In this document: in pieces, positions 4,412-57,770 of the stretch
How positions within the stretch are numbered: the stretch's first letter is position 1
How the letters are laid out: each line of letters begins with the position of its first letter
Source: Chiloscyllium plagiosum
Lineage: Eukaryota
Assembly (NCBI RefSeq): GCF_004010195.1
Contig: NC_057718.1
Span: forward strand, 101,948,197-102,007,800
Reading direction: 5' to 3'
Length of the DNA: 59,604 bases
The notes under the pieces: model-generated
Database searches by the model: none
The model's input: only the letters and a program-made list of their open reading frames with translations
Told to the model about the DNA's origin: nothing
Program-made: the position numbers and the translations under genes

Positions 4412-4900
4412 CATTGAGTCATACAGCACAGAAACAGACCCTTCGGTCCAACCAGTCCATGCTGAACATAATCCCAAACTAAACTAGTCCCACCTGCCTG
4501 CTCCTGGCCCATCTCCTTCCAAACCTTGCAGGTAAATCGATGTTCCGGGCAAAAATGTCTATTCCTGATGAAGGACTTTTGCCCGAAACGTCGATTTTCC
4601 TGCTCCTCGGATGCTGCCTGACCAGCTGTGCTTTTCCAGCATCATTCTAATCTAGACTCTGGTTTCCAGCATCTGCAGTACTTGTTTTTACCTCCTTCCA
4701 AACCTTTCCTATTCATGTATCTATCCAAATATCTTATAAACGTCACAATTGTATCCACATCCATCACTTCCTCAGGAAGTTCAGTCCACCCACAAACTAC
4801 CCTCTGCGTAAAATATTTTCCCCTCATGTCTTTTTTAAATCTCTCTCCTCTCACCTTAAAAGTGTGCCTCCAGTTTTGAAATCCCCCATCCTGGGGAAGA
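4412..4900 (-). mobile_element. CR1-type LINE 3' fragment with a nested hammerhead cassette (4528-4691)
   Basis: RGERFKKDMRGKYFTQRVV; TSD ctccttccaaacctt. Confidence 0.8.
4561..4597 (+). ncRNA. Minimal hammerhead ribozyme motif, family A (one stem II mismatch)
   Basis: CTGATGA-A-GGAC-TTTT-GCCC-GAAA-CG-TC. Confidence 0.62.
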
Positions 4901-5125
4901 GATGATGTGCGTTAACCTGAGTCCTCATTTTCGATTCCATTTGGGGAATTTTAACCCCCAAAATTGGATATGCTTGGGTTCTGGTCAGGGGTTAAAGCAT
5001 GAAAAGTTTGAATTTTGATGCCAACACATATCCAACTTGTTCACTGCCTGAAGTGAAAGTCACTTTAAATAGTGTCAGAAGTCACATGACATAAGGTTAT
5101 AGTGGGACAGGTTTCATAGAAGAAT

Positions 5126-5423
5126 AGAATCCCTGCAGTGTGGAAACAGGCCATCTGGCCCAACAAGTTCACACCAACTTTCCAAAGAGTTACCCACCCT
5201 ACCCTATAACTCAACATTTACCCTCAAACTACATCCCTGAACACTATGGGCAATTTAGCATGGCCAATTCATATAACCTGCACATCGTTGGACAAAGGGA
5301 GGAAACCCACGCAGACACGGGGAGAATGTGCAAACTCCACACAGACAGTTGCCCGAGGCTGGAATCGAACCTAGGTCCCTGTCACTGTGAAGCAGCAGTG
5401 TTCACCACTGAGCCACTGTGCTG
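5126..5423 (-). mobile_element. HE1-like SINE
   Basis: Same family as 826-1136. Confidence 0.8.
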
Positions 5424-5542
5424 CAAATCACAATCTTTCAGAGTGCTGCTCCTTCATCAGGTGAAGTCACTTCAAGCTTGCGATTTCAAATAAACCCGTT
5501 GGACTATAACCTAGTGTCATGTGGCTTCTGAAATTGACCACC

Positions 5543-5762
5543 TGAAATAACTGCACAGAGGCTGGAATCCCATTACTGAGTCACCCTTTATTTACTCGTG
5601 CACAGTGCACTGGCCAGCCAACTCGGAGTCAGTCCCCTGAACTGAGGAGATTCTGAATCCTCTGCATACCTTCGTCAGCCAGGGCTTTCCTGATTGGTCC
5701 AGTTAATAATTCCAATCAAGGAATTTGTAGTCAATGATGTCCACCTGATTCCAATCACTACA
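5543..5762 (-). mobile_element. Probable solo LTR
   Basis: TG...CA ends, AATAAA on the minus strand, homologous to 39095-39527. Confidence 0.55.
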
Positions 5763-7206
5763 CCAGCCCCATCATACACCGGGCACCGCCACACTTTATA
5801 ATGAGGCAAGACTTCTCTTTACAATTCATTCAAACTTTGAAAACCTCATGGACCAGCCAGCGAAACCTGAGACGACAGCAGTGGTTCAGGCGGTTGTACT
5901 TGCTTTTGCAATTAACTGCAAGTTCTAGTTCTAGTGGGTTTGCCTGGTCAACCTCCCATGACCAGACACTCCAGATAAGGTATTCCTGATGTAGAGCTTT
6001 TGCCCGAAACGTCGATTTTACTGCTCCTGGTGAGCTGCCTGAACTGCTGTGCTTCACAGCACCACTAATCCAGACACTCCAGATGCCTGACCCCCCCTTA
6101 CCCACCCACCATGAGTTCTCAGTACCATACTCAAATCCCCTTCCTGAGCCAACACTCCTGTAGCCTCTGATCCCGCCCCACACTCCCAGTTGGACTCTGA
6201 AACATCTGAGTGCCAGGATTGAGAGAAGTTCACCCCTCTCGGGCAGAAACTGAACCCAGCTCTTGCAAGAATTTGAGATGTTTCCACAGTTCTGTAAGAT
6301 TTGTAATTTCTGAATTAAATCAGGTTATACCTTTGAGACCAAATTGTGAAAACTAAACTCAATCAATGCCTTGAACCTCATATTGTCAGAAGAGTCAAGA
6401 ATTAGTAAACAGTTTCACATCAATATTCAAGAATGTGTTTATCTCACAAACATACATAGCTGAATACCTTATGACCATCACCAAGTAGTTATTGACATTC
6501 CTTAATGATGTGGCAGCAAATTGAATTGTACCATCTTGGTGCTGTTTAGCTGATGCAAGTGATGGAACGTAGCAAGCTATGCAAATATTACTTTGCTTTC
6601 TCTTTTGTGGGATGTGAGCATTGCTGAGAAGACTGACACTTCTTACCAGCTCTAACTGCCATTCAACTGCATGACTAGGCCATGCTTGGAGAGGGTACAT
6701 GGTGATGTTGTGGCAATACCAGACTAGAAATCCAGAGCTCCAGGCTAATATTGTGAGGATTTAGCCTCAAATCCTACCCAGCCTTTTGATGAAGTTTGAC
6801 TTCAATACAAATCTGAAAAGAGGGGGAATAAAAGGATAGTCAATTGGCAGACATGCTGATTTTTGCAAAAACCCATCTGGTTCACCAGTGCCCTTTTGAG
6901 AAGGAAGTCAGCCATCCTGTCTAGCCTACCCGTGACTCCAGTCCCATAGCAATGAAGTTGATTCTTGACTGGCCAATCAAGGATAATAAATATGGCCCAG
7001 CCAGAGATGCTCCCAGCCCATGAATGAAAAAAATTCAGAGGATGGGGAGGAGTCAACCCCATTGCTGTGGATCTGGAGTCACATGTCAACCATACCAGGT
7101 AAGGATGGTAGATTTCCTTCAGTAAAGGACATTAGTGAACCAGATGGGGTTTTACAATAATCAATGTCATAGTCATCATCATTGAGACTAGACTTCAATT
7201 CCAAAT

Positions 7207-8050: not shown

Positions 8051-9301
8051 TTTATTGACTGAATTTAAATTACCATGATAGGATTCAACCCTTTCTGACT
8101 AGAGTCTCTGGATTGCCAGATCAGTGGCATTACACACTGTCTGCCTGAATTGAGTGTCTTATCAATGTTTCTATCTCAAATCAACTTCCCAATAGACATC
8201 TAAATCTACACTGCCCACTGCCTCGGAAAGGCAGCCAACATCATCAAAGACCCCTGTTACCCCAGTTACAATCTCTTCCATCGGGCAGAAGATACAAAAG
8301 CTTAAACACATGTACCAGCAGGTTCGAGAACAGCTTCTTCCCCGCTGTTATTAGATTTCTGAATGGACCTCTCAAATTTACATTCCTGATGAAGAGCGTA
8401 TGCTCAAAACGTCGACTCTCCTGCTTCTCGGTTGGTGCCTGACCGGCTGTGCTTTTCTAGTGTCACACCTTTTGACTCTCAAATTTAATGTTGACCTCAC
8501 TCTTTGTGCACCTTCTCTGCAGCTGTAACTTTATATTCCTCACTCTGTTCTAATACTCTAATGCACTTTGTATGGGGCATGGTCTGCCTATACTGCACGC
8601 AAAACAAAAGTTTTCACTTTACCTGGGTACATGACAATAATAAATCAAATCAAAAATTAAATCAAATAAATATAATGCATAAATATAATGAGCTGTTGGA
8701 CCCCTATTTGAGTTAATTCTGAGAGATATCATTGTGTCTTTCCTATATATTTTGCTAGAGAAACTGGATAACGTTTAGCAGTGCAACATCAAATACTTTT
8801 CTTTCTGTCCACCTGGGTTATGTGAAACAAAGCATTTTGCTAGAAGTTCAGCAGGTGTTGCCGTGATAGTGCTGAGTGTCATCTGAATAATGTCAAACTG
8901 AGACATTCAGTAAGACAATCAAAGGACAGATTAGTGGAAAGTGAATTTCTTTGATTGGGGGAGTCCAGACCTGCTTTATCAGGTCCTGGTTTATCAGAAA
9001 AGTAAAAGTCTGAGACTGCTGGAATGTTGTTAGGCAAGCAAAGCAAGGGTTACAGAACCAGTGTGGTTATATGGAGTTACGAGACACATCAGCCAAGAAC
9101 TGATTGATTGCTGGGAGACAATCAAAGGGTTGAATGGCCTTCTTCTGTTCCAATTGCTGGAGAGGCCAAGTCATTGAGTGTATTTAAGACAGAGATAGAT
9201 AGGTTCGTGATTGGTAAGAGGATTAAGTGTTATGGGTGGAAGGCAGGGTAATAAGGCTGAGAAACATACCAGCCATGACCAAGTGGCAGAGCAGACTTTT
9301 T

Positions 9302-10589: not shown

Positions 10590-11076
10590 CTAGTTTTTCC
10601 TCAGCAGGTTTTTTAGGCTTCTCTCCACTGCTTCATCCAACTCTTCCTCCAGCTCTTCCTTCTTTGACATAGCCAATTTGGACTGGTAATCACTCACTCT
10701 TTGGTCGATGTAAGGAGCACTCTGGGTCCCGTGGAGCATCAAGGTCCATTCCTTGAGCACCCCTTTCTGCTCAGTGCCACCAACAAAACCAACCTCCAGG
10801 ATCCAAGTGCCCCTAGGGTCTTCGCCCCAGGTGTGTGTTGTCATGAAAGGCCACTTGTCAAAGCCCACCTTAGAGTCATCATCCCGTGGCCTGCGGCTGA
10901 GCAGAATGGACTTGGTGCCCATTGGGGAGGTCAGGTTGGCGTTAAGGTCACCTCGCCTGGTGGAATTCATGGTCACCACAGCCTGGACATGCTCAAGGTA
11001 GCGGACAAAGTTATCCTTCCCCTCACACGCATCGGTTGATATTTTTAGGACCATCTTGTTGTCCGATGAGATTGCC
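10590..11076 (-). CDS. PCSK2: PCSK2 last coding exon: P-domain (RRGDL) and C-terminal tail ending ...ERSLKNLLRKN*
   Basis: ORF 10590..11054 extended to a ttacAG acceptor; 487 bp to the TAG stop. The seven exons sum to 1374 bp, in frame. Confidence 0.97.
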
Positions 11077-11142
11077 CTGTAACAAGGAAAAGAAATGGGA
11101 GGCCATTAAACAGGAGCAAGACTCTGGCTGCGATCATAAAAG

Positions 11143-11786
11143 ATCCCTCAAAGTTGCCACCCAGGTTGATAGGGTTGTTAAGATGGCATATTGTGTTTTG
11201 GCTTTCATTCGCAGGGGGATTGAGTTTAAGAGCAGCGAGGTAATGCTGCAGCTCTATAGAGCCCTGGTTAGACCACACTTGGAATATTGTGTTCAGTTCT
11301 GGTCGCCTCATTATAGGAAAGACATGAAAGCTTTAGAGAGGATGCTGAGGAGATTTACCAGGATGTTGCCTGGACTGGAGGGCATGTCTTATGAAGAAAG
11401 GTTGTGGGAACTAGGACTTTTCTCATCGGAGTGAAGATGGTGAGAGGCAAATTGATAGAGGTGTGCAAGATGATGAGAGGCATAGATAAAGAGATTTTTT
11501 CCCAGAGCTGAAATGGCTATCAGAGAGGGCATAATTTTAAGGTGATTGAAGGAAGCTTTAGGGGAGATGTCATAGGTAGGTTCCTCACACAGAGAGTGGT
11601 GGGTGCATGAAATGCACTGCCAGCAGCGGTAGAATAGTCAGGACATTTAAGCAATAGGCACATGGATGATAGTAAAATGAAGTGCATGTAGGTTAGTCTG
11701 ATCTTAGAATAGGATAAAAGGCTGGCATAACATTGAGGGCCGAAGAGCCTATACTCTGCTGTACTGTTCTATGTTCTATTTTCTAT
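11143..11786 (+). mobile_element. CR1-type LINE 3' fragment, antisense in the last PCSK2 intron
   Basis: LVRPHLEYCVQFWSPHYRKD...; (tgttcta)n tail. Confidence 0.88.
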
Positions 11787-13774
11787 AAACTGAAGGACTC
11801 ACCTTTGATCTGTCAGTTATGGTTGAGACTGCGGCTATGCTACTAAAGTCACCCTGTCGTCTGAGGGGTCAGTCACTGTAAAATGGTTTCTATGAAATAA
11901 TTGTCTGCAAGATTGTGATTCTTATGGTCCCATTCGTGCTAATGACGTGCTGATCCTCTGCCCTTCTCTCTTCGTGAAAGCATCAACTTTTCGTTAGGGA
12001 CATCGCAGTCTGGATTGTGAAGAATGGCCATGATAAAGCAGCATTTGATCATTAAAGAGTTTAAATAAGCTCCAAAGTTGAAACACAGACTCACCAAGCC
12101 CTGGGGAGAAACAATCTCTAGGCTGTCAGAAACTGCAGATACATTCATCAGAACGAGAAACCTGAGGTGATGTTTTGCCTACACAGGCTGCACCAGCACT
12201 GGGGATTTAAAGCATTCTGTGGGTGAAGTCAATCTAGCAGAAATGTCCTCCTACTCTTTTCATTTGCCTCAGGAAGCTCTTAGCTATGGTGCAGCATCAA
12301 GCATTCTGACAGCTAAGTGTTGCAGCCTGAGCCATCAGTTTTCCCAGCCGCTGAGGTTTTCATTAATTCTGATCTTTTTATGGGCTTTTACAGCAAGGCC
12401 TGATTATTACATTACTCCGATCACTTGCATTGCAGCTTCTCGTAATCTAACATCTTCAAATGTGGAAATGAAAGCCATTCATTTTATTAGATGTACCCTA
12501 AAGGATACAGCTCCTCAACTCTTTCGGAAGCAGAATTATTTACTTGTCTGGATTCAACAATGCACCATGCTGTTAAACAGTAATTGTATTCCTCAATATT
12601 ATCACTAAAAAATACATCTTACGAAGTTAACACTACAGCAGGGAACCATTCGGCCTGATATCTGGCTCTGCATTTGTTTCGTCTGGAACATTTACTAAAT
12701 CTGTGCAAGGACTTAATTATGCTTTAATTCTTAAAGGGTTCAAGAGTAAATATGACTGTTCAACATTAATGAGGTATGCTACTTTTATTTATTTATTCCC
12801 ATTGTTCAAACACAGACATCAGTTGAAACAACAGCAGAATCAGATCTTTGCCTGTAGCGACAGTGACTATATTCCCATCAGGCAGCTCTCACATTACAGA
12901 GAGATATTGGGTGGTGGTCTAACCTGAAGATCACCACACCTCTAGTGATATTGGGAAGTAGAGAGCTTCATGATAACCTCAGATGATGCAGGATTTGAAC
13001 CTGTGCTGTTGGAATCATTCTGCATTGTAAACCAGCTACCCAGCCAACTGGGCTAACATTAGACAATTTAAGATGAGCATTCAGTCACATCATGCAATCC
13101 ATTTCCATTATATCATTATATGATTCCTTATTATTGAGTTCATTACCCACTTTAAGAACTCAGGCACCAGGTTTTACAATGTAAACTGGATTACAGCTCT
13201 GAAAGCTTTTTAAGACATTCGTTCACAGGACATGGGCATTGCTGGCTGAACTAAATTTTGTTGCCTTCATTAATTGCTCTTGAGAATGTGATGGCGAGCT
13301 GCCTTCTTGAACAGCTGAAATCCATTTGGCATAGGGACACACTCTAGTGTTGTGGAGAAGGAAGTTCCAGGGTTTTGACCCAGTGACACTGAAGGAACAG
13401 TGATATATTTCCAAATCAGGATGATGTGTGACTGGGAGTGGGTGGAGTTCTCATGTATCTGCTGCCATTGACCTTTTAGATAGTGGATGTTCTGGGTTTG
13501 GAAGGTGCTGTCAATGGATAATAGGTGAATTGTTGAAGTGCATCTCATAGATGGTATACATTGCTGCTAGTGAATGTTGTAGGAGCTGGTCTGGTGCCAG
13601 TCAGTCTTTGGTCTGGATGGTTTTGGGTTTCTTGAGTGTTGTTGGAGCTGCACGCTTCCAGGCAAGTGGAAACTATTCCATTACACTCTTTAAATAGCAT
13701 CTTAGGGAAACAGGAGATAAGTTACTTGCCTCAGAATTCCAAGCCTCTGACCTGCTCTTATCGCCACAATATTT

Positions 13775-14190
13775 GTGGATGTAGGTTTGCTCACTGAGCT
13801 GGAAGGTTCATTTTCAGACGTTTTGTCACCCTACTAGGTAACATCATCAGTGACAAGATTAGAGTGGTGTTGGGAAAGGACGTTTCAGGCAAAAACCCTT
13901 CATCATTCCAGATGAGGGGCTTGTGCCCAAAATGTTGATTTTCCTGCTCCTCGGATACTACCTGACCTGCTGTGCTTTTCCAGCACCACTCTAATCTTGA
14001 CTCTAATCTCCAACATCTGCAGTACCCACTTTTGCCTAACATCTTCAGAGAGCCTTCAGAGGCTCATCCAGAGGCTCACTGAAGATGTTACCTAGTATGG
14101 TGATGAAACGTCTGAAAACGAACCTTCCAGCTCAGCGAATAAACCTACATCCAGAACCTCAACCTGATTAACAAATCTTCTCAAAACTCG
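13775..14190. mobile_element. Palindromic Poseidon-like PLE terminal cassette with a nested Neptune-like cassette (13853-14035)
   Basis: Inverted arms; outer TSD tcgccaca(a/g)t(a/g)ttt; inner TSD taacatc(a/t)tcag(t/a)ga. Confidence 0.75.
14076..14115 (+). ncRNA. Minimal hammerhead ribozyme motif, family B
   Basis: tca-CTGAAGA-T-GTTACC-TAGTAT-GGTGAT-GAAA-CG-TC-tga. Confidence 0.68.
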
Positions 14191-14321
14191 CCACAGTGTT
14201 TATATGGCTGGTCCAGTTTAGCTTTTGATTAGTGGTAAACCCCCAGAAGTGTTGATTGTTGGGGTAAAATGCCAGAGAATATAAAAGGACAAAGATTAGA
14301 TTTTTTCTTGTTGAAGATGGT

Positions 14322-14755
14322 TGGTGTGGTGGCTCAGTGGTTAGCACTGCTGCCTCACAGTGCCAGGGAGCTGGGTTCAATTCCAGCCTCAGGCAACAGT
14401 CTGTGGAGTTTGCACGTTCTCCCTGTGTCTGCGTGGGTTTCCTCCCACAATCCAAAGATGTGCAGGTTAGGTGAATTGGCCCTGCTAAATTGCCTATACT
14501 GTAGGTTATTAGTCAGGGAGAAAGTGAGGAATGCAGATGCTGGAGATCAGAGCTGAAAATGTGTTGCTGGAAAAGCGCAGCAGGTCAGGCAGCATTCAAG
14601 GAGCAGGAGAATCGACGTTTCGGGCATGAGCCCTTCTTCAGGGGTTATTAGTCAGGAGTAAATATAGGAGAATAGGTCTGGGTGGGTTACTCTTTGGAGG
14701 GTCGGTGTGGACTTGTTGGGCCAAAGTGCCTGTTTCCACACTGTAGGGAATCTAA
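14322..14755 (+). mobile_element. HE1-like SINE interrupted by a hammerhead cassette
   Basis: Same family; insertion at 14517-14642. Confidence 0.8.
14608..14642 (-). ncRNA. Minimal hammerhead ribozyme motif, family A
   Basis: Minus strand CCTGAAGAAGGGCTCATGCCCGAAACGTCGAT; cassette 14517-14642 sits in a SINE with TSD ggttattagtcagg. Confidence 0.7.
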
Positions 14756-16205
14756 TTCTTAAAAATAAATTGGCATTTGTATGGTAAAAATCTCCAGTCC
14801 GTTCAAATACAGCAAAGAAGATTTGACATAGCATGCAGCCAGAGGATACACGCATGTTCATCTCAATCTCTCCCAATGGAACTGTTGTCTCAATCCTCAA
14901 TGATTTTGTTACTTTAAATGGTGACTAAGCAACACATTTCGACCCTTAAGACATAGGTGAGTTATCTTCCTGTTCCTTCAGCTCCTCATCGCTTATAAAG
15001 CCTTTTACATATCGTGTGCTGGGTCTATTGGGATTGTATGAACATACATTCCCATGTGATGTATATAATTTCAACAGACTGAAGGGAATGTCTAGCGGTG
15101 ACCTGTGACTGCCCTAACCACAAGACCATTGACTAACCATCCTACCATGAAGATTGAGCAGTGCTGGATGAGGGAGCATCTGAACGAGGGCAGTGTTTAA
15201 ACCTTCAGAAAAAGGGTTTGGAAAGTAGGTGAGAGGTGAAGGCTGGCAGAGGAGAGACAGGGATTAGGTTGTGGCTAGTAAATGGGTGGGTACACAGGGC
15301 AGATATCAGAAGCGGGTAAATGAGGGCTGTTACAGCAATCCGCTCTCTGGGCTGGGATGGGGGTGTTCAGGTCAGAGTGTGATGGGAGGGTGAGGTGTTG
15401 GGTTCATAGGCAGTAGGGATGTAGTCATGTAGTGGCTGCAGGAACTAGGTGGAGATGGGGAATGATTGGGAAGGGGGATGGAGCTGGGGGTGAGGTTGGG
15501 TAGGATCCAGCAGAGGTGGGGAGACAGGTGGGGGACGAGGAAGGTGTCTTATCTGTGGGGGACGAGGAAGGGGATTGAAGGTTGAATCTGGAGGGATCAA
15601 GTGGTTGGGGGAGGGGGAGTGTCAGTGTTAACATTCGGGGAATCAGTTTAATAGTTATCCAAGAGCTGCAATGGGCTTTAATATTCTAGGCAGGCCACTG
15701 AGTCAGAAACCTCCAAACTCTCTGAGTCTCCAACTGTCTGGGAGGATTCCTGATGGCGTCAATTGCCCATCACAGGTTTCAACTTACAGGGCAACTGCCG
15801 AGGAGTTAGCCAGGACCTCCACATGTTCGCAGTCTGCAGTGTTGTCAGGATCATCTTACTATTGGAACAACTGCGCCATTCAGATTCAGTACTGCCGATG
15901 GAGGGACAGATATTGTCAAGAACACAAGGATTACTTCTCTGTTTCTCTTTGAAGTAGAGGCTTTTCTTTCTAACATTCACCTGCGAGAGCAGACAGCTAT
16001 GCTGGTTAATGGTATCGACCACAACATGGCACCGGTGCTAGAGCAGCACTAGCTCAGTCCTGCTTTGGGTTTGCCAAACTTGGATTCTGGGCTCAAGCCC
16101 TGGTGAACTGGCTAGCATGAGAAGCCCTTTCCAGTCACCATAAAGTCTTACGTTCTCTTGGAGGTAAGTCTTAAGTGTCCTTGAATTATGTAAGTTACCA
16201 CTTAC

Positions 16206-16433
16206 TGTGGTTCCTGCACTGATCCTCCGACACAGTGGAACCTCTCAGGAACTGTCTTCCAGTCTCTGGCCATTTTAACCATCCCTCCAGCATCGAGCAC
16301 TCCGTAACCAAAGAGGTGATTAAACTCCAAACCCACGCCATTCCTTCTCCATTTGTGCACCTCGTCGTGCAGTTGATTGCGTTTGGAAGTCAAGACAGTC
16401 AGGTGCTGCATGTCTCGCCAAGTCAGAGTGGGA
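16206..16433 (-). CDS. PCSK2: PCSK2 coding exon (~exon 11), PTLTWRDMQHLTVLTSKRNQLHD...RFHCVGGSVQEP(Q)
   Basis: Lies within ORF 16202..16486; ccacAG acceptor, GTaagt donor; 228 bp. Confidence 0.97.
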
Positions 16434-16616
16434 CTGTGGAGCAAAAATTGCAAAATGAGCAGGGAAATGGTGTGAGGTTTGCCCATCTGTTGTCAATTGC
16501 AAATCATGCAGTCAGCTTTGCAATAAGATGAAACATCCTGAAGAAATATAAAATGGTTTAATCCATGCGCAATAGACATTTTAGTTCAATATGAACTATT
16601 CTTTTGGAGTACTGTT

Positions 16617-16810
16617 GAGAGTGCAGTGCTGGAAAAGCACAGCAGGTCAGGCAGCGTCCGAGGAGCAGGAGAATCGGCGTTTTGGGCTTCATCGATGAAA
16701 CATCGATGCCCAAAACGTTGATTCTCTTGCTCCTCGGATGGTGCCTGACCTGCTGTGCTTTTCCAGCACCGCACTCTCGACTCTGATCTCCAGCCTCTGC
16801 AGTCCTCACT
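16617..16810. repeat. Palindromic PLE-derived cassette, family A (cores degenerate)
   Basis: Inverted arms of about 70 bp spanning 16617-16778. Confidence 0.8.
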
Positions 16811-16819
16811 GTGTCCCGT

Positions 16820-42904: not shown

Positions 42905-43378
42905 AGGAAACCCACATGAACGTTATCTACAGGATACCCTGCAGGGACTGTCAGAAACACTTCACAGGGCAGACAGCCATATGAGTGCACAAACATCAGC
43001 TGGCCACTGCCAGACATGACCAATACTCTCTCATTCCCAACCCACAGACAATGGAGGACACAAATTCAACTGGGACAATGTAACCATCCGAGCACAGGTG
43101 AAACAGGAATTTCTTGAAGCCGGGCACTCCAACCGGAACTCAATCAATAGACCGGAACTGGACTCCATATACAAACTGCTCAGATACACAATCAGAAGTA
43201 ACAACAAACAGAGACATATAAATACCAGGCAGGATAGAGCACCAACACCTTATCAAAGATGCACTGATCATGTCACCTTGCGAGGTGACGAAACGCTTGC
43301 AGAAAATCAAGTGGGCTCAGCGAACAAATCCACAACTTCATCCACAATGCGAGCTACAAAATCTTCTCAAAAACTCTA
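42905..43378 (+). mobile_element. Poseidon-like PLE 3' fragment (GIY-YIG remnant plus degenerate hammerhead)
   Basis: aacgttatctacaggataccctgc reads NVIYRIPC; FLEAGHS...SIN; similar to 23480-23954; CTGATCA-TGTCACC..GGTGAC-GAAACG at 43264-43296. Confidence 0.75.
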
Positions 43379-46300
43379 ATATTGAGGAAGATCAAGCAGC
43401 TAGGGAAGGGTGGAGAAATGACCCTATTCATGTATAATGGACAGAGAGGGTGGCCTAAGCTCAGGAAACCAGGATGTGGCAACATTCTGGGAATTGATGA
43501 GAAATGATAAAGTCAGTTGTGGGAGTGGAGTACAGGACCCTTGTGAGAAACCACATGGTAAGGTGAAGCACAGAGGGAAATATAATGGCAGCTCATCAGA
43601 AAAGCATGGCAATAATCATGAAAGATTTTCATCTACAAGTAGATCAAACATGTTATTTGGATAAAGGTAGCCTTGATGACCAATGTATTGAATGTTTTCA
43701 GGATAATTTATTATGATATACTCAGCCTGGTATTGAGAAACAAGATGGAATTCATTATTGATTTCATAGTGAAACTGCTCCTAGAAAATAGCGACAATAA
43801 CATGACTGAATTTTAAACTCAGCTCCAGGGAGAGAGTGGGTTTGAGAGAGTTTTTAACAACTTAAACAAGGGCAATAATGAGGGCATGAAAGCAGGGTTG
43901 GGCCAAGTGAATTGGCAAGTTAGGCTAAAGGATAGGTCAAAGAAATGCAGTGGCAGATATTTAAGGGGACATTCAAGAATAAATAGAACAGACATATTCC
44001 AAAGAGTAAGAAAAGTTCCAAGGGACAGGCCTACCATCCATGGTGAACCACAAATGTTAAAGGTAGAATCAAACTAACAGGAAAAGCATGTGAGTATACA
44101 AGGGCAGGTGGCAGGTCAGTGTTGCTGGGTCAAAATTCTGGAATTCCCTTCCTAATGGCGTTATGGGTCTACCTACAGCACATAGACTGCAGTGGCTCGA
44201 AAAGACAGCTCACCATCACCTTCTCAAGGGAAAGCTAGGGACGGGCAATAAATACTGACCCAGCCAGTGACACCCATGTCCTGTGCATGAACAAAATAAA
44301 AATTCTTGAGAATTGGCAGAGTTACATTAACTCAATCTCTCTGCCTGCTGCACACCCTCCGAACCTGCAGCTCCCCGTTCTCTCAGGTCTAACCCTGACA
44401 TGAGTGACATTTCTACAAAGGGTGATAGAGGTTTGGAACTGCCTTTCACAAACAGCTGTGATGCTGCATCAGTTGTTCATTTCAAATGTGAGACAGATAA
44501 ATTTTCATTAACAAAGGTATTAAGGGATATCGGCCAAAAGCAGGTATATGGAGTTAGGCCACAGATCAGCCATGATCTTGTTGAATGGCGGATCAGGCTG
44601 GAGGGGCTGAATGGCCTACTCCTGTTGCTATGTTCATTGTCACTAAACCTGTTTTGTTGTTTTCTGAAATACTGACCTTCACATTGCGGAGCTAGAGCAC
44701 CAAGTGTCAGGTTATGGCACAGTGAGCGTGTCCCTACCTCTGGAACCCCATGCAGGCTGAAGTCCTACTTGCTCCAGAGGTGTGTAAATGCATCTCTGAA
44801 CTGTTTGATTAGAAGATATCAGGTAGTTGTCGTGGTCACCGTCGCTGAGAGTAACTTTTAAATCCAGATTTATTCACTTAAATTCCCAGCTGCCATGGTC
44901 AAATGTGAGTCCTCGTCCCCAGAGAATTAACCTGAGCCTCTGGATTTCTGATCCAGTGACATTACCATACTTTATCATCTCCCCTTTTCAATTCTAATAG
45001 TAAATGAAAATGCTGTTTATTATTTAACACATTAGTTCTAAATTTTCTTTTAGACATAACCGTACACCTGTCATACAGGTAACTAAGACTCAACTACTCA
45101 ATTCTATCATGATTAAAAGTAAAATGCTGCAAGATGCTGGAAATCTGAAACAAAGAGAGAGATTATTGGAGAACCTCAGCATGTCCGGCGGCCTCAGTGG
45201 AGAGAGAAACAGAGTTAAAGTTTCAAGTTCAGGGATCCTCCTTCAGAATTTCCAAAGAATTTCCACCTCGGACTCAAAATATTAACTCTGTTTCTATCTC
45301 TCCACAGATTCTCCAGCACTCTCCATGCTGTTTCTCTTCTGTCGGTGTTGTGTGATAGATATTAAAAAGTTATTTTTCATAGGATTTGGAAATCGCTGGC
45401 AAGGTCAACATTTGTCCCCCATCCCTCACTGCCCCCGAATGAGGTGGCTCTCTAATTCATTTCAGAGGCCAGTTAAGAGTCAACTACATTGCTGTGGGTT
45501 CGGAGTCACATGTCAGTCAGACCAGTTAAGGACAATAAAGTGATCCAGATGGATTTTTAACAATAATTAATGAAAGGTTGTTTATTATCAAAGCTAATAT
45601 TGAATTGAATTTCCCCAGTGGAATTGGAGCCTATATCCCTGAAGCATTAACCTGTGAACCTAAATTACCACTTCATCACCATCTCCCCAAGTTTTTAAGT
45701 GTTATGTTTTCTTTTTTCTTTTTTTTCTTTTTTTCATTAAGTTTTTACTTTTTTTTATTTCTTTTTTCTTTTTCTTTAACCCCCCACACTACCACCTAAG
45801 TGCAGTAGAGTGTTATGTTTTAATGTGAAGTAAATTCAAGAACACTAATTACAATCAATATTATACTGTCCTTTTGTCTGTCGGTATCATCATGTCAAAA
45901 GACATCTAATCATTTCAACACAATAACTTATATTCCAGGTCCAGTGAGCACATATTATCCAATAGGATATCTCTTTCTGAACTAACTCTATTTTCCATCT
46001 ACTCAGTTCTTCCTCTTTATTTTTGGAGTTGGGCAAATAAACAGAAGACTATTTCGCAAAGATTTCAAGTTTGGGCTTTAGACACAAAACTAGTCACCCT
46101 AAACCTGACCAATATGTCAGAATCTTTGGTCAGTGCACTACACAGTCAAATACAGTCGAATAGACCAAATAATCGCAGAGGCATTTCCAATATAAATAGA
46201 TTAACAAGAATCCTCATAAAACCAAGAGCAGTTTGGCTTTCACCTCCTGAATAAATATATGTTTCACTGTGGACAAAGGATGGAGCATCAAGTGCATTAA

Positions 46301-46489
46301 AGCGATTTGGATCAAATACTAAAATCAATACCTAATGTGACCCAGACACTGACCGCTCTCTGCTGTCATTGAGTGGCCTTGATTGTTTGGCACATTCATA
46401 ATTCAGTAAGACTGCATGCTTTTCAGCATTCTAAGAGCCTGCAGCTTCTTGGGCAGCACCTAAGAATGAACACATTGCGTCTGCATTAC

Positions 46490-46566
46490 CTGTTAAACCA
46501 ATCATCTGTGTAGCGGGGATATGGATATGGATCATTGCTGCTGAAATCGTAGCTGGCTTCTGCATT
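46490..46566 (-). CDS. PCSK2: PCSK2 coding exon (probably exon 6 by analogy to mammals), NAEASYDFSSNDPYPYPRYTDDWFN(S)
   Basis: Manual translation of the minus strand; acceptor ttacAG, donor GTaatg; 77 bp; phase matches the next exon. Not in the ORF track. Confidence 0.95.
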
Positions 46567-47046
46567 CTGTAAGAGATCAGTACATCAAACTGAAGCTTCA
46601 AATGATATGAATTCTCATTATGAAGAAATGTAAAAACACAGTCATTGGGAGGAAAATAGACAACAGTTCATCCTGCAGCAAAATGGGTACTGCTTAGTTA
46701 GTAACCGATAAATTATGATAATTTGCAATTTGGCATTCTTGGATATGTCCTGATGAATGAAAAGTGCAAAGCCTCATCATCATTTGACTTAGATCTAATC
46801 AATAATTATGACCATTTTTAACTAAGTAGCTTTTCTTTAATGTGGAAGTGCCAATGTTGGACTGGGGTGGACAAAGTCAGAAGTCACATGACACCAGGTT
46901 ACAGTCCAACAGTTTATTTGAAATCACAAGCTTTTGGAGCATTGCTCCTTCATCAGGTTTATAGATTTTAACATAGGTTTTGTCTCACACATACAACATG
47001 TAAACTACCAATTGTTACACATTTTGACATATATAACAGGATAGTA

Positions 47047-48884: not shown

Positions 48885-50678
48885 CTTCTTGTTCGTGTGG
48901 CATCTTTTAGAATATTTACATTCTCTACTTTGCATTAGATCGTTTTGTTTAACCTTCTGCAAATTTTCTTCTTTATTCTCTCCTACTATGTTGTTTTTGT
49001 TTGGACTGGATTGTCTCTCAGTATTATGTAAATCCACAGCCATTCTTGCATTAGTACTTTCCAGCTAAAGTGACAACCTCAGAGCTCTATATCGATAGTT
49101 ATCTGGAGAGTAAGTTTCTCCTCTGTCAGCAGACACGCAGTAATGCAGAATCTCTTATGCCTCAGAACATCTCATTACTCATCAGCTAGATGTCTCAGTT
49201 CCCTCACATATTGAACAATTTTCTCCCTCTCTCCCTGAATTCTGAGATTGAATGTATACCATATATAAATAACATTGATATAAGTTTCAAAGTGTAATTT
49301 CAATGTCCTTAGAATTTCTCCAGTTTGGCTTTCTTGATCCTCACTGAGTTTGAGGGCACATTGTAGCGCTCAGTCTCCAGCTCTAATAGGACAATTGCTA
49401 CTCCTATTTGTTCAGGTTTTTTGTTTAACTCTGTAGCTATTTCATAATTTTGCCTTTGGGGCAAAATGTATTATCGTTCTATATCATATAATTTTTCATT
49501 TGCACTGCACTGGAAAATTCACAGTCAGTTTGATTAATCCAATGGTTGAACATTACTAGATTGCTGATCTAACTCTTCCTTGCTGTTCATTACCACAGCT
49601 GGCTCTCTTGCCACTTAGGAAATCCACGTAACTTCAGTTGGACAGTTCTGGCACCAGAGTTCATGTAGAAGCGTTTAATGGCTTTTTTTCCTAAACTGCC
49701 AACATACTTATACCTTAGATCACATGGGTATGCCAAGTCACATTGAGCATGATACTTACAAGTGAAGTTCTCCAAATGGAATGTGTGTCGACATGGACTG
49801 AAATACGTTCTCACTGATCAATACAGTTATCTATCTTTCTGACGTACTGATGTAACAATCCTGTTCCCACCATAATGATCAGACCCTAGCTTATATTAGA
49901 CATCTCTGCCATTGATGACATGCCCCACAATTTGCAATACAGAGAACTGTACCCCACCTTCCATCTCTTCCCCCTTTACCAAAACTAACATGGACTCTCA
50001 CTAACCACTCCAACCCAGCTGTAGGTTCCTTACCCTGCTGTTGGCCAATGACTTTCAACAGAGCATTCCCCAATTGACAGACAGCCCATTTAATCACCCA
50101 TTTATCAGGCCCACCTCCATCAATAATCAGGCACTCGATGCTGCTTGTAGCTTTGCTATTGTAATATAGGCAGCGATTATCCTTTAATCAAAATTTTTAA
50201 AATGTTCAAACTAAAATTGAGATTTGTAGTGAACGCTTATTCAATACATCATAATTGTACTTACACAATTACTGTGATAGACTTAACATCAGCCATTAAT
50301 GTACAGCTAATTCTGTTCAAATATTTACAGGATCTTGTCAATTTTTAATTGCTAAAATTAATGTTTTGCATTCCCTTGAAGAAGCAGTGCTCCTTTGCAT
50401 GTGAATTAAAGCCCATATTTCATAAACACAATGGGCTGTTTCACAAATGCACCCACCATCATTATCTCATCCTGTTGTAAAATTTGATTATATCATTGAA
50501 ATTTAAGAGCTGATAATCTCCAGGGATCAACTTGACTCCTCATCATTATTTTGCCTTGTAGTAGTGCCTATGGGGAAACTAACTAGAAAATATGCAAGCC
50601 AATGATAAGGACACAAGACCAGAAGAGATAGGAACAGTCTGAGACCATTTGGCCCCTTGAGTTGACTTTCCCATTCAA

Positions 50679-51093
50679 GGAAGAGCGCCTCATTTTCCGC
50701 CTAGGAACCCTCCAACCATAAGGGATGAACTCAGATTTCTCCAGTTTCCTCATTTCCCCTCCCCCCACCTTGTCTCAGTCCCAACCCTCGAACTCAGCAC
50801 CACCTTCCTAACCTGCAATCTTCTTCCTGACCTCTCCGCCCCCACCCCCACTCCAGCCTATCGCCCTCACCTTAACCTCCTTCCACCTATCACATTTCCA
50901 ACGCCCCGCCCCCAAGTCCCTCCTCCCTACCTTTTATTTTAGCCTGCTTGGCACACCTTCCTCATTCCTGAAGAAGGGCTCATGCCCGAAACGTCGATTC
51001 TCCTGCTCATTGGATGCCGCCTGACCTGCTGCGCTTTTCCAGCAACACATTTTCAGCTCTGATCTCCAGCGTCTGCAGTCCTCACTTTCTCCT
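50679..51093 (+). mobile_element. Neptune-like PLE 3' end with hammerhead
   Basis: Begins with EERLIFRLGTLQP-like endonuclease C-terminus; flanked by the 13-bp TSD ctttcccattcaa. Confidence 0.8.
50963..50999 (+). ncRNA. Minimal hammerhead ribozyme motif, family A
   Basis: CTGAAGA-A-GGGC-TCAT-GCCC-GAAA-CG-TC; intact core, short imperfect stem I. Confidence 0.75.
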
Positions 51094-52895
51094 TTCCCAT
51101 TCAATGTAAGTCAGGGCCTATTTTCTTCCTCAATTTCTTAATTCTTTGATCATCCAACATCTATTGATCTCAGCCTTGAATCTTCTCAATGACTGGGAAG
51201 TGGAATTAGAGGAGAAAGGTTATCACAGAATTCATGGGCCATAGAGCCTCTTCTGTGCTGTATGACTTGATAACCAAAGCCCCACAGCCAACTGGGGTAG
51301 ATTCTTCCATGGATCAGCAGCCTTCCAATTGAAGCAATGTCTCTTCATCTCAGTCCTACATAACAGATTCCTTACCTTGAAGCCACGAGCTGGATTTTCC
51401 TAGTCTACTTGCTGATTGATTTACTATTAAGCTGATTGAACATCAATGATCCCGATAAGGAAAATGCTGAGAGGTTTACAGCAGTCAGGGAGTCTAGAAT
51501 TCGGGAATGTTGTCTCAGGATATAGGATGATCATTTGTGACTGAGATGAGGAAGAAGTTCTTTCCAAAAAAAGGATTGTGAATTTTAGGCACTCTTCACT
51601 ATGGAGGGCTATGGATGCTCCATCGTTGAAGATACTTTAAGGCCAGGAAAAAACAGACCTTGGTTTCTGAAAGAATCAAGGGATACACAGAGTGAGCGGG
51701 AAGGTGCAGTTGAAGTCCAACATCAGCCATGGTTATATAAATGGCGGGGCAGGTTGGATGGATGAAATGGTCTACATCTGCTCCTATTTGTTGCATTCCT
51801 GGAGATTGGGCTTAGTATGAGGGGCTGGCTCAGAAAAATAGTGCTTGGAAGTAACTCAACTCAAGTGTGCATGGGATGATCATTCGGATGGATATGGTAC
51901 AGCATCCCTACCTCTGAACCTTGAACCTGGGTTCAAGTCCTTCCCGCTCTGAAAATGTGTCTTAACACATGAACAGGTTGATTGGAAAATATCTGGAAAT
52001 GCTGTGCAGGATGTTGGGAAAAGGCAGCAGATTGGCACTAGAACTGGTGAAGGCACAATGGGCCGAATGGCCTTCTTCTGTACCATAATAATTCTGTGTC
52101 TCTGTGAGGGCAAGCCTGGAGACAGCTCTCTGATGTTTTCTTGGCCAATATTAATAGAGGTCTCAGTGTGGCTGGGTGAATGAGGTTGGAGGGATGAAAG
52201 TGTGCTAAGACATTGGAGCCAGAGTTCCCAAACCTTACATCTATGGGGTGTGGGTGGGTGCATCAATGAAAGGCCACCATCGTATCTGACCCATGGTTCA
52301 GCACAGGGGTCTCCCTCCTAACCCAGTCTAAGACAGTGATGGGTATCTCCACATTGAGAATGCCCACATTACAAAGTTACCACTGGAGTATCGATTTCAC
52401 CATTCTTTCTGCCACCACCTGCAGGCTCAGGAATCTTATCTGCTCCCGATATCGGGATCCCAAAGCCAGTAGGAACACCTTGCCAAGTGATCCCTTGTTT
52501 TAGGTTCCCCAGCTGGAGCTGGAAGAGGGTAGAACAACCTCTCACAACCTCTGCCAGGGTCTGCAAGAATTTTATGCATTTCCGTGAGATATGCAATCCT
52601 GGGCAAGAAAACCACAAACATTAATCGGCAAAATGCAAAACAAAAATCTGAGGGAAGTGAACAATCAATTTCTTTCTGAAATAGCTTAGCCATCATAAAT
52701 AAAGTCTACTTGTTTGAATTAACCTGTTCAATAATTCCACAATTAGACAGGGTGCACATTTACCAAAATTATGCTGTGACGTGCTGCCAATATACAGCCA
52801 ATTGAGAGATGTTCCAAGGGTTCTGGGAGATTTTGACATTGCCTTAATGTCATAACTGTCCCTCAGGGATTTGTGAACCTTCTGAACATTAGCAA

Positions 52896-53405
52896 GGTTC
52901 TGGATGTAGGTTTGCTCGCTGAGCTGGAAGGTTGATTTCCAGACGTTTTGTCACCATACTAGGTAACATCTTCAGTGGGCCTCCGGCCGAAGCACTGCTG
53001 ATAATTCCTGGTTTCTATTTATATGTTTGGGTTTCTTTGGGATGGTGATGTCATTTTCTGTGGTGATGTCATTTCCTGTTCTTTTTCTCAGGGGTTGGTA
53101 GATGGGGTTTAACTCGATGTGTTTGTTGATAGAATTCTGGTTGGAATGCCATGCTTCTCAGAATTCTCATGCATGTCTCTGTTTGTCTTGTCCTAGAATG
53201 GATGTGTTGTCCCAGTCGAAGTGGTGTCCTTCCTTGTCTGCATGTAAGGATACTAGTGAGAGGAATTATCAGCAGTACTTCACCCAGAGGCCCACTGAAG
53301 ATGTTACCTTGTAAGGTGGCGAAACGTCTGGAAATGAACCTTCCAGCTCAGCGAGCAAACCTACATCCAGAACCTCAACCTGAGTTACAAATCTTCTCAA
53401 AACTT
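52896..53405. mobile_element. Poseidon-like PLE terminal fragment arranged as an inverted repeat
   Basis: About 52896-53010 is the reverse complement of about 53262-53375; the interior matches 21700-21965. Confidence 0.8.
53292..53331 (+). ncRNA. Minimal hammerhead ribozyme motif, family B
   Basis: cca-CTGAAGA-T-GTTACC-TTGTAA-GGTGGC-GAAA-CG-TC-tgg; stems I and II pair. Confidence 0.75.
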
Positions 53406-54741: not shown

Positions 54742-54994
54742 ATGATGTGGAGGTGCCGGTGTTGGATTGGGGTGGACAACGTCAGAAGTCAGATGACACC
54801 GGATTATAGTCCACCAGGTTTATTTGAAATCACAAGCTTTTGGAGCGCTGCCCCTTCATCGGGTGAAGTGAGAGAGAATTCTGTGCCTGAGGGCTTCTCT
54901 CTCTTGCTTCACCTGAGGAAGGAGCAGCGCTCCGAAAGCTTGTGATTTCAAATAAACCTGTTGGGCTATAACCTGGTGTTGTGCGACGTCTGAC
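54742..54994. mobile_element. Non-coding palindromic hammerhead cassette, family C variant
   Basis: Inverted arms 54781-54994; related copies at about 5074-5540 (split by a SINE), 34286-34472 and 46840-46958. Confidence 0.8.
54910..54944 (+). ncRNA. Minimal hammerhead ribozyme motif, family C
   Basis: cac-CTGAGGA-A-GGAGC-AGC-GCTCC-GAAA-GC-TT-gtg. Confidence 0.72.
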
Positions 54995-55441
54995 AGAGAG
55001 CAGGTGACTATGAACTGATGGAACGCTAGTGGGAAACTATGCTGCTTTATGAAAGATAAACATTGAAAACCGTCAACTTGCTTTTCAGTTTAGATTAATT
55101 GAAAATTGATTTTGATTTAGAAAGCCTACACCATAAAAAATTCTTTTCAGAGGAGACCTGACTAGAGTCAGAAATGACTATAATTTCTCTACTAGAATGC
55201 TGCAGAGTGATTAAGTGAATAAATTAGCTCAGTCGATAAGTTTGATTGATGCAACTCCCAGACCAGGAGTGTTTGGTAGAAATCTGCCAGTTATTAGAAA
55301 CGGAAAAGGTCTAAGTTCTCAGTTTTGAGAGTAGTCACATAGGAAGAACCATAGTTCATAAGACAGAAACTGAGGGAAATCAATTAAGTTGAACTTAAAG
55401 TTTTGATGTACAGGTAACAAATACTATTGGGAAATGAGTTG

Positions 55442-55646
55442 GAGGTGCTGGTGTTGGACTGGGGTGTACAAAGTTAAAATTCACACAACACCAGGTTATA
55501 GTCCAACAGGTTTAATTGGAAGCACACTAGCTTTCGGAGCGTCGCTCCTTCATCAGGTCCTGTTAAAGGAGCAGCACTCCGAAAGCTAGTGTGCTTCCAA
55601 TTAAACCTGTTGGACTATAACCTGGTGTTGTGTGAATTTTAACTTT
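55442..55646. mobile_element. Non-coding palindromic hammerhead cassette, family C
   Basis: Near-perfect inverted arms 55470-55646; TSD tattgggaaat(g/a)agttg. Confidence 0.85.
55524..55559 (-). ncRNA. Minimal hammerhead ribozyme motif, family C
   Basis: Minus strand ac-CTGATGA-A-GGAGC-GAC-GCTCC-GAAA-GC-TA-gt. Confidence 0.75.
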
Positions 55647-57433
55647 ATTGGGAAATAAGTTGACACATTGTTTTGCAGTGCATTTTCGGACCTTTCAAAA
55701 TTGTTTTCTAAATCTAGTTTGCTCGGCTTTCTTTGCTGTGGGAATTGATCCACCTTATTCACCCTACCCAGGGCCCTCAATTTTTCACATGGTAATTAAA
55801 TCTTCCCTGAGCTTCTTCAGTTTCAAACAAAATAATCCCAACCTATCCAAGGTTTCCTGGACATTCAAATACTCCATTCATGGTTGGGAATTCTACAGTG
55901 AGTAACTCACATCCTGACTCCCCAAAACCTGTCCACCATCTACAAGGCACAAGTCAGGAGTGTGATGGAACACTCCTCACTTGCCCTGGATGGGTGCAGC
56001 TCCAACAACACTCAAGAAGCTCGACACCATCCAGAACAAAGCACCATGCTGGATCAGAACTCCATCCACAACCTCCAGCAATCACTCTCCCCCATGGCTG
56101 ACACTCAGTAGTGGCAGTGTGCACTACCTGCAGGATGTACTCACTAAGCCTCTGTCAACTTTCCAAACTGCAGAATCACAGAGTCATACAATACTTAAGA
56201 GGTCCTTTGCTCTATTGAGTTTGTACTTCCAAAACTTTATTACTACCTACACCAGCCTCACCTTCCCACATGATGTACACAGCCCTGAATGAAATGACAC
56301 TTCAAATGTCCCTCCATGTACTTCTGAAAGGTTGTCCACTTACCTCCAAAGCAGTGCATTCCAGTTCCCCGCCATTTTTCCTCAATTCCACTAACATCCT
56401 GCCTCTCACTTTAAAATTATTTCCCCCTTTCATTAAACCTTCGACTAAGGGGAATAGTTGCTTCCTCCCCCTCCGTACATGTCCCCCCCATTATCTTACA
56501 TACCTCTATCAGGTCCTTCCTTGGCCTTCTCTGCTCCAAAGGAAAAACCCAAGCTTCTCCAGCATCTCTCCCCTGATGAAATGCTCCCCTTGGTGAATCT
56601 CCCCTGCACCCCTCCAGTGCAAACACATCCTTCCGGTAGTCAGGAGACAAGACTTATTGGACACAGTACCCCAGCTGTGACCTAACCAAACTCCCGTACA
56701 GCTTCAACATAACCTCTCTGCTCCTATCTTCTATGTGTTTTTTTTCACGTATGGGATGTGGATGTTACTGGCTGGCCAGAATGATTTTTTTAGTTTATTA
56801 TTGCCTGTCCCTAGTTGCCCTTGAGACGGTGGTGGTGAGCTGTTTTCTTGAATTGCTGCAGTCCACCTGCTGTAGGTAGACCCACAATACTATTGAGAAG
56901 GAATTCCAGGATTTTGACTCAATGACAGTGAAGGGCCAGTGATATATTTCCGAGTTGGGATGGTGAGTGGCTTGGAGGGAAACTTGAAAGTGGTGGTGTT
57001 CCCATGCATCTGCTGCCCTTGTCCTTCTCAATGGAAGGTGCTGTCTGAGGACTTTTGGTGAATTTCTATGGTGTATCTTGTAGATAGTACACACTGCTGC
57101 TACTGAACGTCGGTGGCGGAGGGAGTGGATGCTTGTGGATGTAGTGCCAATCATGCGGGCTGCTTTGTCCTGGATAATGGCAAGCTTACTGAGTGTTATT
57201 GGAGCTGTACCCATCCAGTCAAGTGGGGAGTATTCCATCACACTCCTGACTTGTGCCTTGTAGATAGTGGACAGTCTTTGGGGAGTAAAGAGGTGTGATA
57301 CACACCACAGTATTCCTAGCTTCTGACCTGCCCTTGTAGCCACTGTGCTTATGTGGTGAGTCCAGTTAAGTTTCTGGTTAATGGCAACCCCAGGAAATTG
57401 ATAGCGGGGGATTCAGTGATGGTAACACCATTG

Positions 57434-57662
57434 GAGATAGTGAGGACTGCAGATGCTGGTAAGTCAGGGTTGATAAAATGTGGAACTGGGAAAAGATCAA
57501 CAGGTCAAGCAGCATCAGAGGAGCAGGAGACCCAATGTTTTGACCCAAGGATCCTGCCTGAAAGCAGTCCAGTATGAGGGTCCTGCCAGAAACATCGACT
57601 CTCCTGCTCTTCTGATGCTGCTTGATCTGCTGTGCTTTTTCCAGCTCCACACTTTATTGACA
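57434..57662. repeat. Palindromic PLE-derived cassette (diverged family A)
   Basis: Inverted arms about 57470-57660; flanked by atggtaacaccattg on both sides. Confidence 0.75.
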
Positions 57663-57734
57663 ATGGTAACACCATTGCTGAAAATGTGTTGCTGGAAAAA
57701 CGCAGCAGGTCAGGCGGCATCCAAGGAACAGGAG

Positions 57735-57770
57735 AATTGACGTTTCGGGCATGAGCCCTTCTTCAGGAAT
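57735..57770 (-). ncRNA. Minimal hammerhead ribozyme motif, family A
   Basis: Minus strand ATTCCTGAAGAAGGGCTCATGCCCGAAACGTCAATT. Confidence 0.68.

Follow-up and report, generated by a model that had tools for sequence, protein, structure and literature searches.

Minimal hammerhead motifs in probable Penelope-like insertion stubs around PCSK2 of Chiloscyllium plagiosum

Introduction

Why does a stretch of shark DNA around the last exons of a host gene hold so many hammerhead ribozyme motifs, and do these motifs act as ribozymes where they lie? The question is raised by 59,604 nucleotides of Chiloscyllium plagiosum (RefSeq assembly GCF_004010195.1, contig NC_057718.1, positions 101,948,197 to 102,007,800 of the forward strand), hereafter the window, which includes part of PCSK2, the gene for neuroendocrine convertase 2. 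A preliminary description of this DNA, made from the letters alone, listed more than 20 motifs in at least three families (A, B and C), placed families A and B beside remnants of Penelope-like elements (PLEs), whose terminal repeats carry minimal type I hammerheads, and foresaw a very large ribozyme load. Our analysis indicates that the motifs are very probably minimal type I hammerheads within short, mostly decayed PLE insertion stubs that are likely inert in place.

Insertions of this kind are already known. Genome-wide single copies and opposite-strand pairs of minimal PLE hammerheads have been in print since 2014 (PMC4209133; this and all other papers cited are represented here by excerpts of their text), and the role of the PLE hammerhead is left open in the excerpts of two other papers (PMC8557442, PMC11167929). 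What stands out at this locus is a very high motif density, together with a sharp start of family A copies at the 5′ edge of helix I.

Abundance and architecture of the motifs

A strict descriptor (CUGANGA/GAAA core, helix II of at least 3 bp, and the arrangement GAAA-NN-UH) was applied to the 58,396 non-N bases of the window and returned 11 matches, whereas 100 dinucleotide shuffles gave 0.1 ± 0.3 (maximum 1). The motif frequency is therefore not that of shuffled sequence, and it corresponds to a density of approximately 190 strict motifs per Mb in this one window. Searches for the core alone gave 12 matches versus 0.8 with no mismatch and 37 versus 16 with one mismatch (20 shuffles). Profile searches with nhmmer found 24 matches to family A, some of which belong to a related family D, along with 7 to family B and 11 to family C. 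Thus, the figure of more than 20 motifs in 60 kb holds if decayed and truncated copies are included, but for strict intact motifs the number is 11. All ten motifs that had been singled out as intact do carry an unmutated CUGANGA/GAAA/UH core, with C3 at 4565+, 14079+, 14641-, 21687-, 24509-, 50968+, 53295+, 54913+, 55556- and 57766-, and the stem II signatures given for the three families (GGGC/GCCC, GTTACC/GGTGAC and GGAGC/GCTCC) are correct. The copy at 4565+ is absent from the strict matches because of a mismatch in helix II.

An Rfam scan of the window reported 8 matches at E ≤ 1, all below the gathering score and none of them a hammerhead, as was expected of standard annotation. The best Rfam matches to microRNA precursors, which coincide with hairpins formed by head-to-head copies, were rejected. 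No match in the window was obtained with a descriptor that called for a helix I of 3 bp and a loop on helix III, because the motifs have no such loop.

For comparison among copies, we aligned 36 hammerhead-and-tail arms (18 of family A, 7 of B and 11 of C), with family D and one tail-only arm excluded. The majority core is identical in families A, B and C, and it is accompanied in all families by one extra base before helix II and by a palindrome in the position of helix III. Helix II, which is closed by a G10.1-C11.1 pair, comprises 4 bp in A, 6-7 bp in B and 5 bp in C, and these sequences are unrelated. The palindrome, which would permit dimer formation, is ACGU in A and B or AGCU in C, and is present in 9 of the 10 cited copies. 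Helix I consists of 4 bp in family C and of 3 bp in family B, where copies differ by a compensatory U-A/C-G swap; in family A it is only 2 bp, a mismatch and 1 bp.

These features are those of the minimal hammerheads in the pseudo-long terminal repeats (pLTRs) of metazoan PLEs (PMC4209133), which likewise have a type I core without a real helix III, the extra base before helix II, the G10.1-C11.1 closing pair, and a palindromic 15.2/16.2 pair (CG in shark A and B, GC in shark C). Several families per genome, mostly dispersed truncated copies, and opposite-strand pairs 100-700 bp apart are also common to both. In contrast, helix I of shark family A is weaker; the Schistosoma mansoni families have 4-5 bp (PMC4209133). 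Sharks go unmentioned in the excerpt of that paper.

An intact core does not equal an intact ribozyme. Among the ten copies with intact cores, not only does 4565 have its helix II mismatch, but 14641 retains 1 contiguous bp of helix I, 57766 lacks the first pair of helix I, the helix III palindrome is gone from 21687, and an inversion junction interrupts the 5′ strand of 55556-, although the core itself is intact. The full family anatomy of core, helices and palindrome is kept in 4 or 5 arms. The fourth family, D, is older, is related to A, and has a different helix II; its members lie at 16885-17098, 18799-18864, 25493-25565 and 45126-45310.

Coding remnants of the carrier elements

Searches by tblastn with 82 PLE-related proteins revealed that remnants of reverse transcriptase (RT) and GIY-YIG endonuclease run directly into family A and family B arms, and Pfam RVT_1 and GIY-YIG domains were found in relatives of these remnants. 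The PLE origin proposed earlier is thus right for A and B. Family B coding remnants lie at 22224-23875, 42919-43343 and 53262-52990. Moreover, the family B tail translates to the N-terminus of the shark Poseidon-type protein P0078 (E = 3e-6 for the arm at 53295+), and 4 of the 7 family B arms have an ATG in loop II. Judged by the type of its RT and endonuclease remnants, family B is Poseidon-type, as had been recognized.

Family A coding remnants are located at 24777-24550, 50659-50784 and 58935-58587. A zinc-finger-like CX2-5CXXC linker between RT and endonuclease marks Neptune and Nematis elements (PMC8557442), and this linker is found in the shark relatives of family A (P0003, P0008, P0012 and P0013), the window remnants themselves excluding that stretch; family B relatives P0076 and P0082 are without it. 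By this predicted feature family A is probably of Neptune/Nematis type. The assignment to Neptune-like elements is consistent with the linker but is too narrow, in that the motif does not separate Neptune from Nematis.

Anatomy of the insertions

The 36 aligned arms come from 23 insertions, and 27 of them sit in head-to-head pairs, which is why motif counts double-count events (Table 1). A pair usually combines one long and one short tail. Correspondingly, tail ends, measured from C3, form two classes in each family: +124 versus approximately +71-89 in A, +107-109 versus +63-80 in B, and +112-115 versus approximately +79-90 in C. Target-site duplications (TSDs) of 10-17 bp flank 10 of the 21 units tested, and several inversion junctions in the window have short microhomology. 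Five pairs that were folded are predicted to be 67-88% paired, with the three structures printed being long hairpins that span the motif. Such pairs would be an abundant intronic source of double-stranded RNA hairpins.

The arrangement matches the known PLE pattern, in which a truncated copy is inverted and a tail is present at one end, and also fits the two-strand priming, from two internal RT starts, of PAc, a Poseidon element of Anolis carolinensis. General PLE architecture includes 5′ truncation, an inverted 5′-truncated copy beside the main copy, and a 30-40-bp tail at one end (PMC8557442), although most shark insertions differ in being reduced to two 80-125-bp arms without coding sequence. 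With PAc (PMC11167929), shark family B shares an open reading frame that starts in the hammerhead stem II region, so that the tail holds its first codons. Other similarities to PAc include two RT starts yielding long and short tails, priming on both target strands, an uncut RNA template, and a lack of RNA-seq reads ending at the cut site. Shark families A and C, in contrast, belong to lineages other than that of PAc, and the PAc excerpt does not mention 5′ ends that pile up at helix I.

A search with tails alone recovered 39, and in 37 of them the copy continues past the cut site on the upstream side, as judged by eye from the letters there. This argues that the templates were uncut, and that the clustering of 5′ ends described below is not a search bias. 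Following what is reported for PAc (PMC11167929), the element protein would nick both target strands, and reverse transcription would then begin at two internal sites, approximately 80 and 110-125 nt downstream of the core. Uncut RNA would be copied back through the ribozyme and the two copies joined head to head. In families A and C, copying would usually run to the start of helix I, close to the 5′ end of the RNA, so that the products would mostly be dead-end stubs of 80-130 bp. The ribozyme itself would work only in the parent RNA, either as a dimer via the ACGU or AGCU palindrome or with the element protein.

Table 1. Hammerhead-bearing insertions and the host gene in the window, with positions counted from its first letter.
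Position	Strand	Feature	Flanks and remarks
4528..4691	+	Family A insertion: long + arm with intact core (C3 4565) and mismatched helix II, short inverted arm	TSD at 4513 and 4692
5425..5545	.	Family C head-to-head pair: 5460- (C3) with intact core, its helix III palindrome gone; + arm from ~+22	
5981..6069	+	Family A single arm from -4, A9 mutated	15-bp TSD
8381..8475	+	Family A single arm from -5, G12>A	12-bp TSD
10593..46566	-	PCSK2 host gene	Exon matches 46566-46492, 41544-41440, 38314-38114, 20307-20086, 19867-19769, ~16480-16193, ~11078-10593
13773..14190	.	Family B head-to-head pair (G12>A in 13850-, intact core in 14079+), family A pair (~13855-14040) nested centrally	
14517..14642	-	Young family A single arm from -1, core intact, 1 contiguous bp of helix I	14-bp TSD
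16611..16816	.	Family A head-to-head pair, both arms truncated within helix II, both G12>A	
16885..17098	.	Family D head-to-head pair, C3 17003-	17003- satisfies strict descriptor
21617..23949	.	Family B Poseidon-type insertion: inverted 5′-truncated copy (22236-21605, -), RT-to-endonuclease remnant (22224-23875, +)	Hammerheads at both ends, 21687- with intact core and 23844+ decayed
24437..24800	-	Family A arm (C3 24509) downstream of GIY-YIG remnant 24777-24550 (82% to P0001)	
26130..26345	.	Head-to-head pair of family C, damage in both cores	12-bp TSD
30885..31063	.	Family A head-to-head pair, left tail long, right short, + arm G12>A	10-bp TSD
34286..34479	.	Family C head-to-head pair, both G12>A	13-bp TSD
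39245..39404	.	Old A-like head-to-head pair, + arm tail only	
42647..42728	+	Family A single arm from +7	15-bp TSD
42919..43372	+	Older family B arm and endonuclease remnant, core decayed	
46841..46958	-	Family C single arm from -2, G12>A	
50659..51092	+	Young family A copy: endonuclease end 50659-50784, upstream pLTR, hammerhead, tail to 51092	Helix I from 50964, C3 50968; cleavage predicted after 50995
52895..53403	.	Family B head-to-head pair, endonuclease remnant 53262-52990 (-); 52975- G12>A, 53295+ core intact	Tail encodes N-terminus of Poseidon-type reading frame
54745..54995	.	Family C head-to-head pair: decayed 54864-; 54913+ with intact core, 4 bp of helix I and a CUU triplet	
55440..55646	.	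Family C head-to-head pair, intact core in 55556-, additional 30-nt tail at one side	TSD at 55425 and 55646; predicted single long hairpin, ~-146 kcal/mol
57434..57662	.	Old head-to-head pair of family A arms that have lost their cores	15-bp TSD
57677..58935	-	Family A arm (C3 57766; intact core, break in the first pair of helix I), assembly gap 57899-58582, RT thumb remnant 58935-58587	Includes inverted endonuclease scrap 57801-57899 (+)

Decay after insertion

The complete core is covered by 25 of the 36 arms and is both complete and unmutated in 11. Nucleotide G12, the general base of hammerhead catalysis (PMC6155905), lies in a CpG and reads A instead of G in 12 of 33 arms, without a significant difference from the rate at tail CpGs (14/54; p = 0.34). 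Private changes outside CpGs are also equally frequent in the core (16/306, 5.2%) and in the tail (109/2118, 5.1%; p = 0.89). Post-insertion decay therefore looks neutral, and domestication of a motif for PCSK2 was rejected on this ground. The copies are probably not functional in place. Consequently, the proposed ribozyme load is very large in terms of motif number, as indicated by the strict count over shuffles and by the genome-wide depth given below, but not in terms of active ribozymes, given that most arms are truncated, mutated or paired with their own inverted copy and decay in a neutral-looking manner.

Genome-wide load and the 5′ edge of family A

In a DNA run, 68,339 contigs matched a 600-bp family A stretch. 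Summed word depth reached 6-11 million over the hammerhead and tail, with individual long contigs at depths of approximately 8-63. This suggests that family A arms number on the order of 10^5 genome-wide, a rough figure, since a copy number cannot be read from summed depth. Provided that the window is typical, its density extrapolated to a 3-4-Gb genome would give several hundred thousand strict motifs; the whale shark genome is 2.8-3.7 Gb (PMC8455134). Published hammerhead counts are approximately 4,000 per genome for coelacanth and 9,000 for Xenopus (PMC4209133), and the axolotl genome, at 28 Gb, has up to 120,000 retrozyme copies (bioRxiv 10.64898/2026.07.22.740005; PMC7229834). The density looks at least tenfold higher per Mb than the published vertebrate counts, although descriptors differ and this one window is perhaps atypical. 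No count of PLE hammerheads in sharks was found in the literature searched, outside of which were subscription papers, Repbase and bioRxiv supplements. Carpet-shark genomes thus appear to be unusually rich in PLE stubs, of a kind already known, that the Rfam scan does not call. Such abundance makes the PLE mechanism testable by counting, as the ends of copies mark RT start sites and possibly the start of transcription.

Along the same family A stretch, depth drops approximately 6-7-fold at the 5′ edge of the motif, both in DNA contigs and in RNA reads. Among the loose ends listed, the commonest at the 5′ side are at 50964 (287 contigs) and 50965 (216), which are positions -4 and -3 from C3, and those at the 3′ side are at +124/+125 and +85. 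Flanks beyond the 5′ loose ends are heterogeneous and AT-rich. Helix I begins with position -4, which is also the A of the sequence TCATTC; family A copies begin at the 5′ edge of helix I and not at the cleavage site. In the window, arms beginning between -7 and +22 account for 15 of 18 in family A and 9 of 11 in family C. The loose-end consensus has an extra G before -4, as might result from cap copying, in 2 of 3 runs, and this G is seen in 0 of the 5 inspected window copies that start at -3 to -6. In Drosophila Penelope, the promoter is internal and TATA-less (PMC2377424), and it is the end of an intron, not a start site, that maps to helix I (PMC4209133). A comparable splice acceptor at -4 was rejected because no AG precedes this position in A or C. 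The same literature search produced no description of PLE 5′ ends at helix I.

We infer that most stubs are copies of an mRNA leader, running from an internal RT start back to the 5′ end. Perhaps the stubs are even the genome-wide footprint of the PLE mRNA 5′ end, an idea that we consider speculative and rather unlikely. Transcription would start from an initiator at the first base of helix I, and the hammerhead would form the first ~32 nt of the RNA. Cleavage with the help of the protein would take off the cap and, for family B, the start codon in loop II as well, thereby serving as a self-limiting off-switch instead of releasing unit-length RNA, and RT starting ~80-125 nt downstream on its own mRNA would copy only the leader. 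If true, this would explain hundreds of thousands of stubs in what is possibly the densest vertebrate hammerhead population known.

Competing explanations

The clustering of 5′ ends could also have arisen independently of any RNA start, and we regard this as quite plausible while still somewhat doubtful. Specifically, ends at -4 might reflect ATT microhomology to the endonuclease target, or RT or a nuclease might halt at the folded ribozyme. The PAc endonuclease prefers 5′-ATT-3′ (PMC11167929), and family A has ATT at -4. The short microhomologies at inversion junctions point the same way, as does the spread of the window cluster over -7 to +22. However, family C clusters in the same place without ATT (9/11 arms), and the genome-wide family A peak is two bases wide and matches TCATTC (A at 50964), which we take to fit the initiator consensus.

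Two other explanations concern the stubs as a whole. It seems improbable that they constitute a self-propagating, non-autonomous family resembling retrozymes or SINEs (short interspersed nuclear elements), in which a ~129-nt unit of hammerhead and tail is transcribed, cut, circularized and copied again by PLE machinery. Such a unit does have sharp ends genome-wide (-4/-3 and +124/+125), and exact head-to-tail joints of it occur in at least 4 DNA contigs among the 68,339 and in 1 contig of a presumed RNA run. Animal retrozymes that lack long terminal repeats (non-LTR retrozymes) also carry type I hammerheads in non-coding, PLE-derived repeats (PMC7229834; bioRxiv 10.64898/2026.07.22.740005), and one such derivative is reported from a chondrichthyan (bioRxiv 10.64898/2026.07.22.740005). 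Yet those retrozymes are head-to-tail arrays expressed as circles, whereas the shark stubs are solo or head to head, with no tandem array of any family seen in the window. The unit ends also differ from the cleavage site, where a cut-and-ligated circle would join, and no circular joint or end pile-up is present among the matches listed for the raw RNA run X17, in which poly(A) selection would lose circles. Furthermore, the PAc protein requires RNA 3′ of the RT start site (PMC11167929), and this RNA is absent from the stubs. Most improbable of all is that an appreciable fraction of the copies work as ribozymes, cleave host pre-mRNAs (e.g., that of PCSK2) and are kept or purged by selection. The 4 or 5 complete arms, the best-preserved copy on the PCSK2 sense strand (24509-), and a prediction that two monomers pair more stably than one folds alone would all be in keeping with activity, and the PAc motif cleaves in the presence of its protein, which it needs, although the motif is dispensable for insertion in vitro (PMC11167929). 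Against this stand the neutral-looking decay, with G12 lost as described, and the orientation of the cited intact cores inside PCSK2, 5 sense and 4 antisense, such that no sense-strand depletion is visible in this small sample. Same-family sense copies lie ~10-33 kb apart, and a tested minimal hammerhead did not cleave as a monomer in vitro and cleaved weakly as dimers (PMC4209133). The RNA reads described below add a weak argument to the same effect.

The preferred explanation, that of mostly inert PLE stubs, must itself be reconciled with several observations that weigh against it. A convincing TSD is absent in 11 of the 21 units tested. No RT or GIY-YIG match was found by tblastn with the 82 proteins near any of the 11 family C arms; because all of these arms are short, none may be expected, and family C is provisionally placed with PLEs on insertion anatomy alone. 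When all non-CpG differences from the majority letter are counted, the core is less variable than the tail (18/306 versus 231/2118; p = 0.006). Because this bias is absent for private changes, we attribute it to subfamily differences fixed in parent elements, which is as expected if the parents conserved the core while tails diverged. The arms that retain full family anatomy are a further point. The RNA evidence comes from one informative poly(A) single-cell run, a kind of data weak on the ends of RNAs; its 3,010 reads for the family A copy at 50513-51112, in both directions, have no pile-up of starts or ends at the cut site. Finally, family B is without 5′ clustering, as just 1 of 7 arms has its end near -2.

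Host locus and additional observations

PCSK2 lies on the minus strand and is represented by 7 last exon matches, from 46566 down to 10593; earlier exons were not found within the window. The hammerhead motifs are located both within and downstream of the gene. Transposon remnants of the window have their best protein matches in Chiloscyllium, Rhincodon and Stegostoma. The family A pair inside the family B pair at 13773-14190 lies beside B helix I, and is either one insertion nested within another or a template switch from one PLE family to the other. At 5425, 14517 and 26130, the stubs interrupt SINE-like repeats or repeats of the long interspersed nuclear element (LINE) type. A SINE-like family of ~300 bp is abundant (827-1173, 5125-5463, 9301-9590, 19219-19576, 31740-32090 and others), and several LINE fragments occur elsewhere in the window.

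Assembly gaps are present at 32249-32772, in a CT-rich low-complexity tract, and at 57899-58582, where the gap splits the longest family A element. A 207-bp direct repeat of 100% identity (47047-47253 and 48377-48583) flanks a SINE-rich stretch near the 46566 exon and represents a recent duplication or an assembly artefact.

Some tails include sequences resembling RNA processing signals. In 10 of 18 family A arms (e.g., 51013-51043 +), a branch-point-like CTGAC, a pyrimidine tract and a CAG ~45-75 nt after C3 resemble a 3′ splice site, and a similar signal occurs in long family C tails (4 of 11 arms). The signal in family A may belong to a PLE 5′ intron or be a source of exonization. In 10 of 11 family C arms (e.g., 54950-54985 +), the motif is followed by a poly(A)-signal hexamer, which is AATAAA or ATTAAA depending on the subfamily, and ~20 nt beyond it by a GT-rich stretch; several of these copies are on the PCSK2 sense strand. 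Lastly, P0012 and P0077 are shark and ray gene models that join PLE RT fragments to host genes, which suggests that PLE pieces are often annotated as exons.

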